NCBI GenBank assembly: GCA_965224705.1
Contig: OZ245056.1
Location: 1,760,001 to 1,824,000, forward strand
Length of the DNA: 64,000 nucleotides
Source of the DNA: Spirochaetaceae bacterium
GTDB taxonomy: Bacteria > Spirochaetota > Spirochaetia > DSM-2461
Direction of reading: 5' to 3'
Part shown: one piece after another, positions 34,450 to 48,406 of the stretch
How positions within the stretch are numbered: the first letter of the stretch is position 1
Layout: every line of letters starts with the position of its first letter
The notes under the pieces: model-generated
Told to the model about the DNA's origin: nothing
Database searches by the model: none
Seen by the model: the letters and a program-made list of their open reading frames with translations, nothing else
Position numbers and translations under genes: made by a program

Positions 34450-36213
34450 ATGGAAAAGAATCTGACTCAGGGTATCACCGATTTTAAGGAATTCATCGAT
34501 AATGATTGCTACTTTGTCGATAAAACCCGTCTTATAGCGCATTTTATTAATGACCTCAGCAAGGTACATCTCATCACCCGGCCCCGGCGCTTCGGTAAAA
34601 CCTTGAATTTAAGCATGATCCGCTACTTCCTGGAGGCCCCCCTACCCATCCGCAAACAGCAGGATTCCCACTCATCGGTTACAACGCCCAATGCCTACCT
34701 TTTTGAAGATCTTGCAATCGCCTCCCACCCGTGCTGTGCCGAGTTCATGGGGCAGTATCCGGTCATTCATTTGAGCTTCAAGGATGTGAAAAACAACGCA
34801 TACAGCAAAACAATCAACCTTGTCCGAGAAGTCATTGCCATTGAGTTCAACAGGCATGGATATCTAACAGAGCAAGGATTCTTAAACAGCCGGGAAGAAA
34901 TTTTCTTCACAAGCATAGTCAATCAGGAAGGTACAGACGAGGACTATGCAAAATCCATCAAGTGGCTTTCCACATGGCTCCACCGCGCCTACGGCAAACC
35001 CCCATACATCCTTCTGGACGAGTATGATACCCCCCTGCATTCGGCCCATGTAGATAAGTACTACGATCAGATGATCACCTTCATCCGCAGCTTCATGGTG
35101 CAGACCTTCAAAGACAACCCCCACCTGAAACAGGCCGTGGTGATCGGCATATTGAAAGTTGCCCAGGAAAGCATATTCAGCGACTTTAACAATCCCAGGG
35201 TCAGTACATTGCTGGATCCGGAAATAGAGGATAGCTTCGGATTCACCGAGTCCGAGGTAGAAGCCATGGCCGCCTACTTTGGACTGGAAGACGAAATGGA
35301 GGGCATAAAAGAATGGTACAACGGCTACCTCTTCGGCGAGAATACCATTATCTACAACCCATGGAGCATTGTCAGCTTTCTTAGCCGCCCCAGAGCCGGA
35401 CTGAAACCCCACTGGATAGGCACCAGCGACAATAGGCTGATCAAGGATGTCATCCAATTAGACCGCCGGGAAGCCAAGATGACCATAGAAAAACTCCTGC
35501 GGAAGGAAGAAGTCCGCAAACCCCTGCTGACCAACATTCCCTACCCTCAGGTGGAAAGCGACCCGGACGTAGTATGGAGCTTTTTACTCCACAGCGGCTA
35601 TCTGAAGGCCTCCGAGAGGCGGCAGGAACACAGGGACATAACATGGCGGCTTTCCATTCCCAACCTGGAGGTGGAAACCGCCTGGATTACCGTTATTTCC
35701 CGCTGGCTTAAGGAAGATATCAGGATAAACGAACACTTCACGGACTTCGTCATCGGCATCCAGGAAGCCAGTCCCCGGCACATAGAACGGGGACTGTCCC
35801 GAATTCTTCGCGGTTTGGCCAGCTACCATGATACGGCCAGGAGCAAAGAGGATTGGGAAGACGAGGAATCGAGACGGGAGAACTTCTACCACGGCCTGGT
35901 ACTGGGTCTTCTGGCCTGCCTGAGCCCGGCGTATGCCGTTGAGAGCAACCGGGAATACGGAGAAGGCCGGCCGGACATCGTCGTTGTCAAGAAGGGAAGC
36001 AATCCAGTCCAGGCCGAGGAAGCCGTCCTTTTGGAGTTCAAACATGGGAACGCAAAGGACGGCAAAGCCCTGGAAGATTTAGCCCGTGAAGCCCATACCC
36101 AGGCAGTAACGAAGTACATGGATGGAGTAAGGGAAAAATGGCATCCTGGGCGCCTACTTGTTCTGGGGGCAGGATTCAAGGGCAGGGAACTGGCGGTTTT
36201 TTATGATTCATAA
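34450..36213 (+). CDS. AAA-ATPase-like protein with C-terminal PD-(D/E)XK nuclease domain
   Basis: YFVDKT, ITRPRRFGKT, LLDEYD, WYNGY, ENFYHG, SNREYGEGRPD, EFK. Confidence 0.93.
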   Translation: MEKNLTQGITDFKEFIDNDCYFVDKTRLIAHFINDLSKVHLITRPRRFGKTLNLSMIRYFLEAPLPIRKQQDSHSSVTTPNAYLFEDLAIASHPCCAEFMGQYPVIHLSFKDVKNNAYSKTINLVREVIAIEFNRHGYLTEQGFLNSREEIFFTSIVNQEGTDEDYAKSIKWLSTWLHRAYGKPPYILLDEYDTPLHSAHVDKYYDQMITFIRSFMVQTFKDNPHLKQAVVIGILKVAQESIFSDFNNPRVSTLLDPEIEDSFGFTESEVEAMAAYFGLEDEMEGIKEWYNGYLFGENTIIYNPWSIVSFLSRPRAGLKPHWIGTSDNRLIKDVIQLDRREAKMTIEKLLRKEEVRKPLLTNIPYPQVESDPDVVWSFLLHSGYLKASERRQEHRDITWRLSIPNLEVETAWITVISRWLKEDIRINEHFTDFVIGIQEASPRHIERGLSRILRGLASYHDTARSKEDWEDEESRRENFYHGLVLGLLACLSPAYAVESNREYGEGRPDIVVVKKGSNPVQAEEAVLLEFKHGNAKDGKALEDLAREAHTQAVTKYMDGVREKWHPGRLLVLGAGFKGRELAVFYDS

Positions 36214-39452: not shown

Positions 39453-41639
39453 ATGGGCCGGGTGGGTATGCTGGCTGCTGCTGCCTATGCCTGCACACAC
39501 ATGATTCGGGCGGAGGACACCTGGATTGCCATGGCCTCCGGGCGGCACATTGTTAATTATGGAGTTGACACAGCGGATCCGTTCAGCACCAACTCAAAAA
39601 AATCGGGCCCCACTGCTGAAGAAATAAAGTCATGGCCCGATTGGGCACAGTCTCTGGTGGAGCGGGTTGGAATGGATGCCGTGCTTTACTGGCATCCTAT
39701 CGGCTGGATTAATCAAAACTGGCTGGCTCATGTTTTCATTTACAAGCTTGCCACAGCCTTTGGTTCTGACAGGGAACCCCATCTCAATGCCCTGGTTTAT
39801 TGGAAGTTTCTGCTTTATACCCTAACGGTTTTTTGTCTCTATGCGATAGGCAGGACGGTGGGTGTTCGTCCAGCTTTCTCCGCTGCGGGAGCCTGCCTGG
39901 CCTTGTTTGTAAGCCGATCTTTTCTTACCATGCGGCCGGCTGATTTCTCCAATTTTCTCGTTCCGGTTTTCATCCTGATCCTGACTCTGGCTACCTGTTG
40001 GAAGATCTGGACTATCTGGCTGATTGTTCCCCTTGCTGTGTTCTGGAGCAATGTCCACGGGGGCTTCATTTATATGTTTATAATGCTCATCCCCTTTGCG
40101 GCATTCAGTATTCTGGGGCTTTGTTTTCAGCGATTCTTCACCGTTATCAGCCTCAAGGGTGTGTATCATGCGGCGGGAGCCGGGTTTACAGCTTTAATGG
40201 CAGCAATTCTATTCAGTCCATTCCGTCTCTCCAATATGACACACCCATTTGTCATCAGCCTTGGCAGGAATGCGGAACACTGGCGTATGATAGAGGAATG
40301 GCAGCCGGCCTTCGACTGGAGCAGTCCGCATGGAACGGCTGTGCCGTTCTTAATTCTGTGTATTCTTGCTGGAACGACGGTGCTGACATGGTTTGCCCTC
40401 CAGAAATATTTATCCTTCTCCATGGTAAAAGCACGGCCCAAAGCGGAGAACTATCAGTGGCCGAGAATTCCATTGGCCATGCTGCTCATCGGGGGCCTGA
40501 CCGTTTATATGGCCATAAGGTCTCGGCGGTTTATTCCCATCGCCGCCTATGCTGTCTGCCCCTTTCTGTTCCTGCTCATTCAAAATATCACGGACGCTTT
40601 ACTTTCCCCAACATCCAGAGCGAAGAAGACTATTCAGGGTATTTTTAGTGGATTACTCCTTGTTTTCATTTCCTGGGCGGGAATAAAATTTTACAATATA
40701 TATGCTGGACCCTGGCCCTTTGATGCACAGAATAATTCTCTCTTCATGCGTATGACGGGTTCCTGGAAGGAGCCCTCTTTAGTTGGTGAGTTCATCAATC
40801 TGAACAGTATTCGGGGGAAGGTATTAAATTTCTGGACCGACGGAGGAAGCCTTGTCTGGGAGCAGAGATCCCGCATGAGGGTGGGGAGGCCCAATGTTCA
40901 GCTATTTATCGATGGACGGGCGCAAGCGGCTTATGATTTATATTACTACGATTTATGGAAGGAAATCTGGGGGGGCGGCGGCTACCGGGCTTCGGGTATT
41001 GATGACGACGAAAAAATGGGTATCTGGATGGATAGAACTTTGAAACGCGAGAAGGTGGAATTGGTGATAGTACCGATAGCCGAGTCTGATAGTCCTATTT
41101 ACCGGGCTCTCACCCATAGCCAGTCCTGGCGTGTTGTATTGACGAGTAACACACACATGCTGTTTGTTGATCTGGATACAGAACAGGGTAAGCGTTTATT
41201 TCTCGGCATGAGAAATGGTCAGACATTGTATCCGGATGACTTTACCCGCAATTTAAACCAGGGACATTTTCATCTGGTCTACAACTTGATGCCGGGAAGC
41301 CGTGTCAAAGGATTGAATCAGGTTATCAAAGCTTATTTCAACCAACCCTCTGTTTTGCCGATGACTGAGATCACCGAAATCGCGGCAATTTACCCAGAGT
41401 TGATTCCAGAAATCATCAAGTTCTGCGAAACCATTTTTGAGGATTTTCAAATTCATGGGCCTATGTATGCCGCGCAGGACGGTTATGCCTCGCGTTTAGG
41501 GGCGATGGTTATGCTGTGTGAATACCTGCGGGAGAATTCAATGCTCCAAAACGACACTCAAAAAGCTGCAATGTACGCGAACAAGTCCGACGCATACAGC
41601 AAAGAACTGGATACAATAATGCAAACCGGAATCTGGTAG
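39453..41639 (+). CDS. Polytopic membrane protein, GT-C-like glycosyltransferase candidate
   Basis: DTW...SGR, W.NQNWL, RP, WSNVHGGF, IEEW, FIDGR motifs; many TM helices plus a soluble C-terminus. Confidence 0.55.
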   Translation: MGRVGMLAAAAYACTHMIRAEDTWIAMASGRHIVNYGVDTADPFSTNSKKSGPTAEEIKSWPDWAQSLVERVGMDAVLYWHPIGWINQNWLAHVFIYKLATAFGSDREPHLNALVYWKFLLYTLTVFCLYAIGRTVGVRPAFSAAGACLALFVSRSFLTMRPADFSNFLVPVFILILTLATCWKIWTIWLIVPLAVFWSNVHGGFIYMFIMLIPFAAFSILGLCFQRFFTVISLKGVYHAAGAGFTALMAAILFSPFRLSNMTHPFVISLGRNAEHWRMIEEWQPAFDWSSPHGTAVPFLILCILAGTTVLTWFALQKYLSFSMVKARPKAENYQWPRIPLAMLLIGGLTVYMAIRSRRFIPIAAYAVCPFLFLLIQNITDALLSPTSRAKKTIQGIFSGLLLVFISWAGIKFYNIYAGPWPFDAQNNSLFMRMTGSWKEPSLVGEFINLNSIRGKVLNFWTDGGSLVWEQRSRMRVGRPNVQLFIDGRAQAAYDLYYYDLWKEIWGGGGYRASGIDDDEKMGIWMDRTLKREKVELVIVPIAESDSPIYRALTHSQSWRVVLTSNTHMLFVDLDTEQGKRLFLGMRNGQTLYPDDFTRNLNQGHFHLVYNLMPGSRVKGLNQVIKAYFNQPSVLPMTEITEIAAIYPELIPEIIKFCETIFEDFQIHGPMYAAQDGYASRLGAMVMLCEYLRENSMLQNDTQKAAMYANKSDAYSKELDTIMQTGIW

Positions 41640-41681
41640 ATTGCTTCACAGGAAGGGGAATCTGTATGGATTCAGTTTTCG

Positions 41682-41921
41682 CTAAAATGCGGTATTTTCG
41701 AGTTCGTTGACATGTGCCTTCATTCCTTCAACGATTGATTCTCTCATACCCGGAATTGACATGAGGTAAAGAGTTTCTTCTATGCTTTTCCAGTCGCCTT
41801 CCCCTACTAAAACTGCAGAGCTGTTTTTTCCTGTGATATGTATTGGCTCATGTGATAGGTTGACTGATTCTACGATTTTGTATAAATCTTTTCTTGCATT
41901 AGTAATATTTATGGCACTCAT
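41682..41921 (-). CDS. Phd/YefM-family antitoxin (no intact toxin)
   Basis: INITNARKDLYKIVESV..SHEPIHI, DWKSIEETLYL.SIPGMRESI; GGAGG RBS. Confidence 0.9.
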   Translation of the reverse strand: MSAINITNARKDLYKIVESVNLSHEPIHITGKNSSAVLVGEGDWKSIEETLYLMSIPGMRESIVEGMKAHVNELENTAF

Positions 41922-42273
41922 ACAACCTCCGTACACCCATTCTAACAGTGAAACATACCCTTGTCTACAGGGGAAAATTTTGTGCTGTAATAGCCTGAGA
42001 GTAGTAATCCGTGCATCATGCACCCTTAAGGATTGCCGTTTTTTATCATCTTACCGGTTTTTTCACAGGTTGTGGGGGGTAGTATTTTCGGCGTGAATGG
42101 TCGATAGGGAATTGCTGCCTGTCCCTTGTTGAGGCGGGGAGTATGATTCCGGCGAAGATTGACGGGGGGAAATGTCCTTTTGGCCCCCGGGTAGGGAGAG
42201 TGATTTAGGGGTACGAACAAACGGCTTCCGGCGGGACATCCGGAGGCCTTCCCGGACAAGGCTCTGGGGGCGG

Positions 42274-45258
42274 TTACTGTTTTCTTTTTGCTCTGAATTG
42301 CTTTACCCGTTCTTTGAATAGTGCTACCCTTTTATTGAACCGTGCGGTGAAGGCTTTGGGGGAAAAATCGATTATGTCAAGATTCAGGTTGTCCATGTGT
42401 TTCCCTAGCTGACGCGCGAGGTTGCCGGGCCAGTAGTCTTCTCTCTGTACTGCCGCATAGTCGGCATCGTTCCAGCCTTCTATGTCCAGATTGATGCGTT
42501 CATTGTTCTCTTTGAGAAGTAGCCTTATTTCTTCCTTCCATGGGCGTTTATTCAAACACAGGTCCTCTTTTTTATATGATGGTAAGTCCTTTTTTCCAAG
42601 CAGGCAGTAGGCGGTCATATAGAAAACAGCAGAAACGCAGAGTGCATTGCCTTCCCGAACCAGATCCCGATCCAGAGTCCGAGTCCGAGCCAGATCCAAA
42701 TCCAAATCCAGAGCCAGAGCCAGATCCCGATCCAGAGTCCGAGTCCGAGCCAGATCCAAATCCAAATCCAGAGCCAGAGCCAGAGCCAGATCCCGATCCA
42801 GAGCCAGATCCAGAGCCCGAGCCTGAGCCTGAGCCCGAGCCCGAACCAGAGTCAGAGCCAGAGCCTGATCCAGATCCAGAGCCCGAGCTATAGCCTGAGA
42901 CAGATCCCGACCCCGATCCAGAGCCCGAGCCCGACCCAGAGCCAGGACCAGATCCAGATCCAGAGCCAGAGCCAGCTTCCGATCCCGGTCCAGATCCAGA
43001 TCCAGAGCCAGATCCAGAGCCAGAGCCCGAGCCCGATCCAGAGCCCGAGCCCGAGCCTCCGTGAATATTTCGCCTAAGAAAAGGAGTTGGAATGCCCGAA
43101 TCTTCTTCAGCCAACCGTATTGTTTCAGCGCGAAGATATTTCGGGGTAAGAGGAGAAAGATGTCTCTCCAGAAGAGAGAAACCGGGGGAAGGGGCAGGCT
43201 TCTGTAATAAAACGTTGTCTGGATTGTCAGAGAAAGCGTTTCGAAGGCTTTCTCCGTATACAGCAGTGCCCGATCAAGTTTATTCAATCGCTTCTCCACG
43301 TCCTCGTCAGTCGTCTTTTCCGGACCGTATTCGTGCAGGGAAGCCTTTATTGTCCAGCTTCTAAGGTAGAAGTCCACATCTTCAGGCCATTCCACATCCT
43401 TCACAAAAAAAGCCTCTTTCGGATCTTCCGAATTGTCGGCTAATGGATCATCCTCAGGGGTGCTCTGATTCCAGTCCACGCCAAGATAAGTAACCTGGTT
43501 AACATTGCTCCAACGGACTTTCATCGCATTCTTAATTGTCGTATCCTCTTCTCTGAGCCATGTATTGATAAGGTCATGTGCTTTTTCCGCGTTCTCTTTT
43601 CTTTTGAGGAGTGCGTTCCATGGAGCCTTGTCCGGTGTTCCGTTCATCTCTGCAAGAAGGAGGACTTCCATCCACCGTTTCCGTTCTTCTTCCGAAAAGG
43701 CCACTTCTTCGCTCCCCAGAATTTCCGCCAGGAAAAGCCGTTGTTCCGCCTCATTGAGATTAAGCTCCCGCAGAAGGGAGCGGTAGGCGATATTCTGGGA
43801 ATCCTTTTGCCTCAGGGAGAGGAAGAGATGGCCGCTTTCCCTCCAGAATTCCGAGTCGGCCCGCTCCAGAAGGAATGGAAAGCTCCTGCGGCCTTCTTGA
43901 TGGCGGACGTTGAGGTAATAGGCCGTTAGGTATTCCTGGAACGAGTTGTGGGCAAAGCGGATGGTTCCGGCCTCCGGTTCCGAGAGGATGCCGGTCCGTG
44001 CCAGATAGAAGGGGAGGAGCTTTTCGGCATCCTCTTCGCGGATGGAGTGGAAGCGGTTTTGTTCTTTGAGATATTTGGAAAATCTCTGCGTCACTTCTTC
44101 CCAGGATTCGCTCATGATTCGTTCTTTGGAATTTTTGCTGTTCCCCCGCTGCCAGTCGAAGGCCAGCCGACTCAGGAGAAAGAGGAGATCCAACTTTTCC
44201 CATGGGGGGATGCTGATATTCCGGACTCTCTCAAGCTGAAGGATGTAGGCATCCATAATCTTCTCATAGAGGGTGGCGCGGCTGTGGGGAAGTTCCCCAA
44301 GGGTGTTGTGCACAAAGCAGATGAGGGCCATAAAACTTGGCCGCCGGGCCATGGAGCTTAGATACTTTCTGCCCGCCAGGGCTTCAATCAAGCTGTCCTT
44401 CTTCGCTTTCTTTTCTGCTTCCCTTGGAGCGGGCCGCAATTCATGCCACTTCCCGATGTAGTCCTCCTTCTGTTTATCCGTAAACGGAAGAAGATGCAGC
44501 ATCACCGTTTCCCCGGAGAAGCGGGGGGAGCCGTCAGTTCTTAAGTCTTCAAAACCGGCCGGGCGCCCGGTAATGATGTAATGGTTATGAATCTCTTCCT
44601 GTGAAAAAGCCTCCAGAGTCCATTTCATAATTCTGATTCGTTTTTCAGGCCCAACTTCGTCAATACCGTCAAGCAGGATGAGGAACTGTCCCTGGCGGCG
44701 GTATTTTTCCAGATTCCTCCTTGGGTTGAAGTAAATTAGGGGATCGTCCTTTAGTACATTTTTTCGTACATCTTCCAAAAAAACGCGCATAAGACCATCA
44801 AGGGAGTCTATCCCCTTAAGATCATGTTCTCTCAGCACCAGGGGAATGGGGATAATCCAGGGATAGGTGTTATTGAAGGGAGTTCCTTTTCTTATGCCTG
44901 TCTCAAGAGCGAGCTCATGCACAAGCCATGTCTTACCCGCACCGGGGAGTCCGGCGATCATGAGGAAGGGCTTTTGTTTAAGCCAGTAGAGGATGTCCCG
45001 TTTTAGTCCTTTATCCTGATCCTCTCCCGCCCTTTTTATGCGATGATCGTCCTTTTCTTCGGGAATGTTTTCTTCGGAGAAACAGCGGGGGATGTACATC
45101 TTCTCCACCTGGACGGGGCTGCCATCATCAACCAATCCAGCCATGTCTGTTAGACCGAATTTCCTGTAGAGCCAGTTGACGTAAATATCCCGGGTCCGGA
45201 CTTCCGCGTCGGTCAAACCAAGCTTCCTGCCTAAATCCTGTATTTTCTTAATCGTCAT
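42274..45258 (-). CDS. NACHT-family STAND NTPase (NLR-like) with C-terminal (A/D)(R/L) repeat
   Basis: GLPGAGKT Walker [11 protein letters not shown]alker [18 protein letters not shown]. Confidence 0.9.
42655..43056 (-). repeat. In-frame hexamer repeat array G(C/A)TC(T/G)G, about 65 units, with a perfect 60-bp tandem duplication
   Basis: Directly visible; 42661-42720 is identical to 42721-42780. Confidence 0.95.
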
Positions 45259-45259
45259 G

Positions 45260-46854
45260 CTATTGTCGGCCCGCCTTGGTCGTAAAGAAGAGCTTTACAC
45301 TGTCCGGCTGGACTCCGCGGAAATCACTTCGGATTCTCTCGAATAAACGGCGATCATAGCGGTATTCAAACAAGCGATCTCTGTACGCCTCCAATGACAG
45401 CTTAACGGATTTATCCTGAGAGAAGATAATGGATAACTCCTCAATGTATCGCCGCCTTAACCCTTCATCGGATTGTTCCTCGGGTTGTTCCTCCGCACCA
45501 GATTGTTCCCAGGATTGTTCCTCTTCACTTTCCGAAGATTGGGGCTGTTTGCCATGAGATGTATCCCTTAATTCATGCTGTATCACATAGTCCAATGCCC
45601 TAAGAAAATTCTCGAAGTCTTCAGGGTGGAAGGCAATGCTTTTATAGATTGCCGGAAATCGGAGCTGCAGCGACAGGAGAAGGGCTGTCTGATCCAAATT
45701 CAGTTTTTCTCCATCCGCATTTTTTTCAGCCGTATTACCAGCCGCATTGATAGCCTTCCAACGGGCCAGAAGGGTGTTGAGGAAATTTTTAACCTTTCTG
45801 GGGTTGTGCTCCCATATCTCGTTTATGATTCTCGCCAATGTATCGCGGCTTGATTTGTCTTGTAGCTCCTCGGGCCATGTCTCAATGATTTTGCCAATAA
45901 ACGGTCGAAAGTCGCGGCATACCGGGACATGAACGCTACCCTGAACCAGCTTCGCCATATACTGCCGCGCTTCAGCCTTACCACAATCTTCTCTGGAGCG
46001 AATAATCGCCCTTTCCACCGCATCAGGATCAATTCCAAGAATGAAAACGCAGGAACGGGTGTTGAGGTAGAGTTTTATCGCTTCCAGAATCTCAAGAATC
46101 TTCATGTCTTCACATCGGTCAAGATCGTCAATGAAGATGACGAGATTATCGGCCATGCGATTGTCTTTTTTGGGGAGCATTTTTTTGATTGAATCGCGCA
46201 CCTGGCACACCGCTCCATTGAAGGCAAGGAAGAATTGTTGCGCGTCGGTCAATTCGCGGTAAGGTATTGCCGGGCGGGCCCCCTTGTATAGTTCCTTTCC
46301 TTTTTCGTATAGGTAGGCTGCCGGTTTGATGCCAATGTTTTTTTCGGTAACGGTATCGATGACTTCCGTTAACTTTTTATGCCGAGATCCAGTAATCCCC
46401 AGGCGGGATTCTCTCCAGGCTTTTTTGGCAGCAGCCCCCTGCCCTCGGCCCATTTGGGTATCTGTTTTCGGATTTCGTGGAGCAGGGGAATCATCGGGTT
46501 CGGTTCATTTTGATACTGCCACGGGTTGAACCAGACGGTTAAGGCCTGAGTGTCTTTTTTCAAGCCTTCCCACGTCTTGGCAACGGATTCTGAGATTTCC
46601 TTCTCTTCGGAGATGCCCATCCCTTCCTTGAAACTGAGGGGGAGGCCGCCGAGAGAGGCCATACAGTGACGGAGCAAACTGGTCTTTCCGCTGCCCCAGC
46701 TTCCGTAAACCCCAATGACAAAGGGGGCGGGAGCCTCGACGGCCATTTTATAGAGTTCCGCACCGGCATGTTCAAAGCCCAGCGTTTCAAACTCGATAGT
46801 CCAGTCATCGTTTGTATAGCCTTTGTTGTTTTTGCCGTCTTCAGGGTTTGCCAT
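45260..46854 (-). CDS. KAP-family P-loop NTPase, split over two frames (46854-46369 and 46453-45260)
   Basis: GVYGSWGSGKTSLL and WFNPWQY in the first frame; VIFIDDLDRC and NPRKVKNFLN in the -1 frame. Confidence 0.85.
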
Positions 46855-47111
46855 CTTTCTTTCTGCCGGATAGTTCTTCGGTGCTTGGTGATTATGATAG
46901 TAAGAGTTAAACCGGTTGTCAATGAGTTGGATTTTATCGATCAGGGCAATCGCGGCTAATTCTACTCCTTTGCATCCCTCGTTCTTTAAGTATGAGCGCC
47001 ATCGCCTCAAAGGCGGTGAAAGGCTTTCCCCAAATTCCTCCAGCTAGGAGCCTCAATGTAATGGATCACCAGATCACCAGATCAGCACGTATTCGGGATT
47101 CTTCCTGTCCA

Positions 47112-48305
47112 TCAGCATGACACCATATTCTCATGGGAGTCAAAATGCATTACCCTGGTATTCGATACAGCCGCATCCATCAATTCTTCCAAATCAGGAA
47201 TGGATTCAAATTCACTCTGCTGAACATCGGCTACAGGTCGGGTCAATGGTCTTTCCGGGCTGAAGAGAGTACAGCAGTCGTCAAAAGGTTCCACGGATGT
47301 TTCATACGTTCCAATCTTGACAGCAAGCTGGATAATTTCCTCCTTATCCATGCCGATGAGGGGTCTGAAAATCGGCAGATCTGTGGCCCGGTTTGTATAC
47401 GCAATACTTTCCAGAGTTTGACTTGCCACCTGACCCAGAGACTCCCCTGTAACCAGAGCCCCGCAGTGACGTCTGGCAGCCCATTTTTCGGCAATCCGCA
47501 TCATACAGGCTCGTGAGTGCAGTGTAGTGGTAGAAGGTTCTACAGAATGACCTATCTTTATCTGACAGTCGGTGAATGGCACTGAAAGAAAGGTAAGGCC
47601 GCCGCACCAGGGAGCAATGGTGGATGCCAGGCGCACAACTTTGTCATGAGCCTCATCGCTTGTATACGGCGGCGTATGAAAATATATGGCCGACAGTTTC
47701 AAGCCCCGCCTGGTCATTAAAAACCCGGCAACTGGAGAATCAATGCCTCCTGACAGAAGGAGCATGCCCATCCCCCCGGTTCCGACAGGCAACCCCCCGG
47801 GACCTGGCTGTTGATGCTGATATACATAGGCCCATTCCCTCAGTTCAACCCGGATGATGAAATCCGGTTGATGAACATCGACCCTGAGTTCAGGCATGGA
47901 TTCGTGCATCAAATTGCCGAGTTCCCGGGCATAGCCGTAACTGTCCAGAGGCAGGCTCTTGTCCACCCGGCGCACCTCAAATTTATAACTCATTCCAACC
48001 TTCTGGGACAGGCATTCTTCAGCGATGAGCAGTGAGGCCTCGAAAACATCGTTCAGGTTTTTTCGAACTCTTTTTACCCGGCTGAAAGCAACGATACCCG
48101 GGGTACTGGCCAGAATTCTGGCCGTTTTGTCATCGTCAAGTATTGTTTCAAGGTAGTAGCGGCCTGGTTTTACACTGATGTGTACTCTGGCATCAATTTC
48201 ATTGAATTTTCGCCTGATGTTTTCTTTTAGAATTCGTTCAAAATATCTTCGATTACCCTTCTTCAGTGAGATCTCTCCAATCTTAACCAGCCATAAATTC
48301 GTCAT
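47112..48305 (-). CDS. thiI: tRNA 4-thiouridine synthase
   Basis: GEISLKKGNR, THUMP domain, LLSGGIDSPVA, GESLGQVASQT, DCC. Confidence 0.95.
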   Translation of the reverse strand: MTNLWLVKIGEISLKKGNRRYFERILKENIRRKFNEIDARVHISVKPGRYYLETILDDDKTARILASTPGIVAFSRVKRVRKNLNDVFEASLLIAEECLSQKVGMSYKFEVRRVDKSLPLDSYGYARELGNLMHESMPELRVDVHQPDFIIRVELREWAYVYQHQQPGPGGLPVGTGGMGMLLLSGGIDSPVAGFLMTRRGLKLSAIYFHTPPYTSDEAHDKVVRLASTIAPWCGGLTFLSVPFTDCQIKIGHSVEPSTTTLHSRACMMRIAEKWAARRHCGALVTGESLGQVASQTLESIAYTNRATDLPIFRPLIGMDKEEIIQLAVKIGTYETSVEPFDDCCTLFSPERPLTRPVADVQQSEFESIPDLEELMDAAVSNTRVMHFDSHENMVSC

Positions 48306-48406
48306 ATCTCCCAAGAATAGTAAAAAAAATCTGTTAAGTCAGTAATAATCCAGAGTGCCTGCAGCAGAACCCTTTTGCACCTCGTCTTATCGGACAGGGG
48401 TGTGCT

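Follow-up and report, generated by a model that had tools for sequence, protein, structure and literature searches.

Bacterial NACHT proteins (bNACHTs) follow an effector-NACHT-sensor plan according to the available part of Kibby et al. (10.1101/2022.07.19.500537), in which clade-14 members are described as acting without a fused effector; the term KAP does not occur in the main text of that paper. Tested bacterial NLR-like proteins mostly kill via a fused nuclease, NADase or peptidase. KAP-type nucleoside triphosphatases (NTPases) are known from other settings. In the accessible portions of the respective papers, RADAR is presented as a two-gene system whose RdrA is a KAP-type AAA+ ATPase in which a helical insert separates Walker A from Walker B (PMC9994260), PifA as a KAP protein without membrane helices for which depolarisation and nucleotide leakage are reported (PMC13001434), and the APE systems as having a KAP-related NTPase among their variable effectors (10.64898/2026.10.19.760177). 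Here we analysed a 64,000-nucleotide stretch of a Spirochaetaceae bacterium genome (contig OZ245056.1, positions 1,760,001 to 1,824,000; the window), in which a KAP NTPase gene is directly followed by a gene for a NACHT protein without an effector. Sequence comparison across genomes indicates that KAP plus effector-less NACHT is a real, strictly conserved and co-inherited two-NTPase module. Its two halves each belong to a known defence family, but the module itself is apparently undescribed. No PADLOC or NCBIfam system matched the pair, in line with the preliminary description of the locus, which had not recognised it as a named system, and the literature searched, which left most subscription papers outside, contained no description of it. 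The seven available supplementary files of PMC13581612 gave no match for KAP, PF07693, PifA or QatA, and PMC7159879 gave none for KAP.

Species genomes were scanned with an alignment of the KAP protein, and the best 80 of 555 loci were analysed. A NACHT gene lies directly downstream in 32 of these loci and not in 41; the remaining 7 end too early. In a quick IQ-TREE phylogeny of 80 rows, consisting of 78 of the loci and two copies from the closest relative, G009, and omitting L021 and L077 because their KAP is split, a single branch (SH-aLRT 97) unites 33 paired rows with one row that lies at a contig edge. All 33 assessable rows on this branch are paired, and none of the 41 unpaired rows falls inside it. 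The adjacency is not chance; its conservation, like the existence of fusions, had been named as a check in the preliminary description, and both were found. Paired KAPs occur in nine phyla: Pseudomonadota, Acidobacteriota, Nitrospirota, Campylobacterota, Bacillota, Bacteroidota, Abditibacteriota, Verrucomicrobiota and that of the window. The reverse scan, for NACHT, yielded 80 metagenome loci, mostly generic, and one of the 78 that were scored had an upstream KAP (two of the 80 were split, and two more were too short for the NACHT tree). In a FastTree phylogeny of 118 NACHT rows, all 38 paired NACHTs lie on one branch (support 99), which contains none of the 59 unpaired NACHTs, none of the 17 rows at an edge and none of the 4 from fusions. 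The lone independently found metagenome NACHT inside this clade also has its KAP. The branch support may be overstated: the profile derives from paired proteins, and long branches are sometimes joined in FastTree phylogenies.

Across 32 pairs, the KAP and NACHT trees have 19 of 29 splits in common (mean 0.18 and maximum 3 after shuffling), with a patristic correlation of r = 0.90 and no strongly supported conflict. This agreement indicates joint inheritance, not binding. Among 427 neighbours in 38 loci, no conserved third gene was found. The distribution is patchy: within the genus, the KAP turned up in 2 of the 14 genomes, and among 401 genomes of the phylum a clade member was found in the window's own genome only, besides one weaker, different KAP. 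No paralogues were found in this genome. G009 has two intact copies of the pair, which are 96% alike and lie in different surroundings with transposase genes nearby. A second, unrelated NACHT gene stands behind a gene of about 495 codons in three congeneric genomes (L010:6142-9739, L011:6322-10306 and L012:5831-9839) and is split in G009; the gene ahead of it is putatively AlbA/Schlafen-like, judged by resemblance.

In the window, the module comprises the following features:
45260..46854, minus strand: KAP NTPase gene as a whole, from the ATG at 46854 to the stop at 45260 (open reading frame list and Pfam), lying in two frames
46369..46854, minus strand: 5' part of the KAP gene, 161 residues with Walker A (KAP_NTPase, 37.6 bits); the frameshift leads to an early stop
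45260..46373, minus strand: 3' part of the KAP gene with the Walker B hhFhDDLDRC, an NPR motif and a helical tail (KAP_NTPase, 72.4 bits)
46374..46378, no strand: homopolymer run (five T on the plus strand), the frameshift site; other strains have one more base here
42274..45258, minus strand: effector-less NACHT protein of 994 residues, with Walker A at G103, Walker B D197-G-I-D-E and winged-helix H437
42660..43057, minus strand: tandem repeat of 6 nucleotides, 66 copies, in frame in the NACHT gene, encoding a (Leu/Arg)-(Asp/Ala) dipeptide tract at residues ~735-868
46894..46922, minus strand: predicted sigma-70-like promoter with 11 of 12 consensus positions, ending 40 nucleotides before the KAP start (consensus match only)

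The KAP stop and the NACHT ATG are separated by one base, 45259, as had been noted in the preliminary description. Both KAP parts score above the Pfam cut-off for KAP_NTPase, and the NACHT match reaches 30.0 bits against a cut-off of 26.7 over residues 100-273. With Walker A beginning at G103, 102 residues precede it; the short N-terminus described earlier was borne out, and its length of about 95 residues had to be corrected. No effector domain was detected in the NACHT protein by Pfam, PADLOC or NCBIfam and no catalytic effector domain in the KAP, both in agreement with the earlier reading of the sequence. The sigma-70-like site upstream of KAP is the best of 7 sites in 41600-47300, where shuffled sequence gave a mean of 4.6 sites.

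When each NACHT gene is taken to begin at the first ATG in frame close to the KAP stop, the gap between the genes is -23 to +33 nucleotides in 33 of 34 pairs, 12 of which have a 4-nucleotide overlap. Walker A lies at residue 75-125 in all 34 paired NACHTs compared to 6 of 69 unpaired ones (unpaired median, 201). [quoted passage not shown] The profile matches NLRC4 and NLRP3 at E values of about 2e-8. Among the 30 partners scanned, 13 have C-terminal leucine-rich repeats (LRRs) and none has an effector Pfam domain, so that no N-terminal effector is fused, unlike in the tripartite bNACHT and Avs proteins. A low-complexity dipeptide tract stands in place of LRRs in 13 of 34 NACHTs. Its length varies among relatives, with a difference of 56 residues between the two copies in G009. 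The C-terminal dipeptide repeat of the window NACHT had no Pfam or Atlas match (best Atlas score with residues 520-994, 0.82, giving no lead), and a single-sequence AlphaFold model (predicted local distance difference test, pLDDT, 35.7) was discarded. In the closest NACHT relative (P0002, 68%), a frame change occurs inside the hexamer repeat and a Gly-Ser tract stands at the end; this change may be an error or a repeat-driven switch.

Paired KAPs have about 500 residues and keep both Walker motifs, with a helical insert between them (median 108 residues). The family scores above the Pfam cut-off of the KAP_NTPase class and has its Walker A, DDLDR Walker B and long insert, all of which is split in this strain. 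None of 32 paired KAPs reaches a hydropathy of 1.6 over 19 residues in the insert, which points to a soluble, PifA-like type without a membrane-spanning insert. Between 230 and 318 residues follow Walker B in the paired KAPs (n = 32); in 36 unpaired KAPs the median is 451 and the range 37-558. In a monomer comparison, the model of the G009 KAP (pLDDT 76) had its best fold match in RdrA (Z 16.6, root-mean-square deviation 5.0, 317 residues aligned), above Orc/Cdc6 (Z 14.8). A 387-residue N-terminal extension of the L019 KAP was considered as an effector and rejected as a likely shadow frame, having no family match and an atypical codon G+C content. The two halves look complementary: the NACHT has LRRs or a variable repeat and no effector, and the KAP is soluble and RdrA-like and has no long tail.

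Compared to the described systems, the NACHT half resembles bNACHTs in its D[GAS]hDE Walker B and winged-helix histidine and, in the 13 of 30 partners with LRRs, in its C-terminal repeats. It differs in that an N-terminal effector is absent throughout the paired clade. The C-terminal region is nevertheless long, in contrast to clade 14, and a KAP gene is invariably present upstream. With RADAR, as far as the accessible part of PMC9994260 describes it, the pair shares the two-gene layout and the KAP-type ATPase with its helical insert. However, the partner is a NACHT protein and not a deaminase, the KAP lacks the large C-terminal domain of RdrA, identity is 12-14%, and RdrB had no match among 96 scanned neighbours. 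PifA, QatA of QatABCD and PDC-S20 likewise have a KAP_NTPase domain without membrane helices and gave partial PADLOC/NCBIfam matches. In contrast to these, the paired KAPs form a separate, NACHT-tied clade without Qat partners, and the QatA score is 87 bits against a cut-off of 600. The literature on operons of Orc/Cdc6 and KAP (PMC10853773, available part) and on loci of diversity-generating retroelements with STAND or KAP targets (10.1101/2023.09.22.558884; PMC8195603; available parts) mentions KAP together with NACHT/STAND NTPases in conflict contexts. The former need two Orc/Cdc6 genes and the latter a reverse transcriptase and lectin tips; neither set is conserved here.

Three of 24 viral KAP loci contain the pair, in its LRR subtype, between integrase and excisionase. 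The integrase of these prophages shares 74% identity with integrases from Pseudomonas phages, and the prophage KAP had no match among plasmids and named phages. In 80 prophages with this integrase (L197-L276), the slot holds 134 open reading frames in 73 clusters, and the pair occurs in 3 of the 80. When a single representative of each cluster was scanned and its label extended to the other members, PADLOC-type genes were found in the slot of 22 of the other 77 prophages: Septu (4), PD-Lambda-5 (2), PD-Lambda-5 B/methylase only (2), methylase-containing sets (10), and AriA-like, PDC-S20, NsnA and partial PDC-M28B genes (1 each). The two-NTPase defence system envisaged in the preliminary description is supported in part: comparison shows a conserved, co-inherited module that also sits in a prophage defence slot, with defence and physical partnership as predictions. 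In the other 55 of the 77 prophages, this hypervariable slot had no counted PADLOC match at 1e-15. Recurrent cargo includes a single gene of 275 residues (5 loci), a gene of 518-535 residues (3), a 314+164-residue pair (3 loci) and a 244+646-residue helicase pair (3). These recurrent genes are candidate defence genes.

In the window, the KAP gene is split by a one-base frameshift that leaves Walker A in the first frame and Walker B in the second; tblastn located the break in the helical insert between the two. Contigs of X3, a run from another study labelled mollusc metagenome, and of X4 have one extra T at 46374-46378, at full depth. The X1 and X2 contigs, which represent one sample that may be the assembly's own source, are identical to the window over 44242-47300 (0 differences). 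Full-length KAP orthologues of 510 and 582 residues are known, P0066 and P0067 being intact orthologues. In a control with 93 open reading frames from relatives, 27 of 28 comparable places in this genome were whole and KAP alone was split. The ratio of nonsynonymous to synonymous substitution rates against G009 is 0.12-0.34 for both genes, with the repeat excluded. Because other strains and orthologues are whole, the control was whole at 27 of 28 places and these ratios are low, the KAP loss is likely recent and strain-specific. An assembly error is unlikely, given the agreement of X1 and X2 and the 27 whole places, which leaves some room for a systematic homopolymer error. The window copy of the system is probably inactive. 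L077 is a second genome with a split KAP beside an intact NACHT, an arrangement expected if KAP were the costly half.

The absence of a fused effector throughout the clade, together with its constant pairing with another NTPase, suggests an output unlike that of tested NLR-like proteins. We give an even chance to the pair being a mobile, split NLR-type anti-phage system with NACHT as predicted sensor and KAP as predicted output. The NACHT protein would be at rest with ADP bound, kept so by its winged-helix histidine. A phage trigger would be bound by its C-terminal LRRs or helical/repeat region, upon which NACHT would oligomerise and then recruit or switch on KAP. KAP would assemble as an RdrA-like ring and stall the cell, either through ATP turnover or through membrane leakage of the PifA type, for which the depolarisation and nucleotide leakage described in the accessible part of PMC13001434 serve as a model; in this strain, the frameshift likely leaves the system off. 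KAP is assigned the effector position because the gene order KAP-NACHT-sensor mirrors the effector-NACHT-sensor plan and fusions put KAP in the same place. A more specific version, held tentatively and with somewhat less confidence, is a pair in the manner of sensor and helper NLRs. The effector-less NACHT, a receptor resembling animal NLRs, would signal to a ring-forming KAP executioner that has no nuclease, NADase, protease or pore domain, and in one branch an expandable 6-nucleotide microsatellite would have replaced LRRs as the variable recognition surface. Several observations weigh against a NACHT sensor with a KAP output. The paired KAP lacks a recognised toxic domain, and none of the 32 inserts contains a membrane-spanning stretch. 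Congruent trees are also expected from transfer as one cassette, and the pairs in prophages belong to the LRR subtype and not to the repeat subtype of the window. Moreover, a frameshift in a coupled operon could silence NACHT too, which weakens the argument that KAP loss is tolerated. In the available text, effector-less bNACHT01 gives protection alone (10.1101/2022.07.19.500537) and RdrA regulates a separate effector and is not itself the output (PMC9994260). On chromosomes, most neighbours are housekeeping genes, with a defence-like gene within two genes in only about 5 of 35 non-viral loci, a count that has no background control.

The division of labour may be reversed, with NACHT acting as both sensor and executor like bNACHT01. 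KAP would then load, restrain or disassemble NACHT in the role of a regulator, chaperone or scaffold. We consider this reversal improbable, at about half the weight of the reading with KAP as output, even though the closest solved fold to KAP, RdrA, forms a scaffold or regulator ring for RdrB in the accessible part of PMC9994260, clade-14 bNACHTs reportedly work without a fused effector, and KAP lacks a catalytic effector domain. A purely restraining KAP should not be found broken beside an intact NACHT, as it is in two genomes, and fusions place KAP in the effector position. Still less likely is a linked signalling or conflict module concerned with something other than phages, such as plasmids, kin discrimination, stress or host signals. 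The few defence neighbours on chromosomes and the patchy spread (2 of 14 genus genomes, 1 of 401 phylum genomes with a clade member) would fit such a role; the prophage slot used in common with Septu, PD-Lambda-5, PARIS-like and methylase genes does not, nor does the NACHT-LRR architecture, which is that of anti-phage bNACHTs tested in the available part of 10.1101/2022.07.19.500537. The preliminary description had also suggested a KAP-NACHT fusion ancestry, and eight fusions, all with KAP N-terminal of NACHT, were indeed present among 60 long KAP matches (1022-2915 residues only). All eight KAP halves and all four placeable NACHT halves lie outside the paired clades, which does not support that ancestry, and no fused member of the paired clade was seen among the 60, a weak search limited to that length range. 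Mere co-travel of two genes that do not work together is opposed by the absence of any uncoupled clade member in either direction (KAP tree, NACHT tree). We therefore regard a split descendant of a fusion, or such co-travel, as highly improbable. The fusions form two independent groups (P0332, P0345, P0347 and P0350; P0314-P0317), one with a pentapeptide linker; one member has a terminal FGE-sulfatase domain.

Through the predicted anti-phage pair with KAP as output, the function of soluble KAP ATPases, among them PifA and QatA, becomes directly testable. With the histidine mutation known to activate bNACHTs, the pair could be turned on without knowing the phage, and the toxic half would be identifiable with four plasmids. 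Intact orthologous pairs are available from a congeneric genome, such as the G009 copy at L008:7110-11510, and from prophages, such as the LRR version at L173:1147-5483.

The neighbour scan covered 96 proteins (95 of 127 listed and one added). Defence-like neighbours were an HNH nuclease (L038), PDC-S70 (L048), a split methylase (L008), an SNF2 helicase (L023) and VapC (L030). In the window, the pair lies between thiI and the remnant of a toxin-antitoxin system, as first described, which is local context only. The flanking features are:
47112-48314: thiI, upstream of KAP
46942..46964, plus strand: 23-nucleotide end of a dispersed repeat family with 40 copies, on the upstream side
42016..42116, no strand: dispersed intergenic repeat, downstream flank, with 7 similar copies elsewhere in the genome
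41682..41921, minus strand: orphan YefM antitoxin downstream of NACHT, context outside the module

Synteny with G009 (92% DNA identity) stops at the end of thiI, which suggests a cassette in a variable spot. Location inside a transposon was considered and is not shown, because the two flanking repeats belong to different families. The 40-copy repeat (46942-46964 and 39 other places in the genome) has a sharp, conserved left end and is probably a non-autonomous mobile element. No toxin open reading frame lies between yefM (41682-41921) and the convergent gene. The orphan yefM region (41682-41967) has its own promoter-like site, and one X3 contig skips 111 nucleotides there, including the YefM start. 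Further along the window, 39453-41639 encodes a hydrophobic protein of 728 residues without a Pfam match, and 34450-36213 a protein of 587 residues that combines an AAA-ATPase-like region with a PD-(D/E)XK nuclease.

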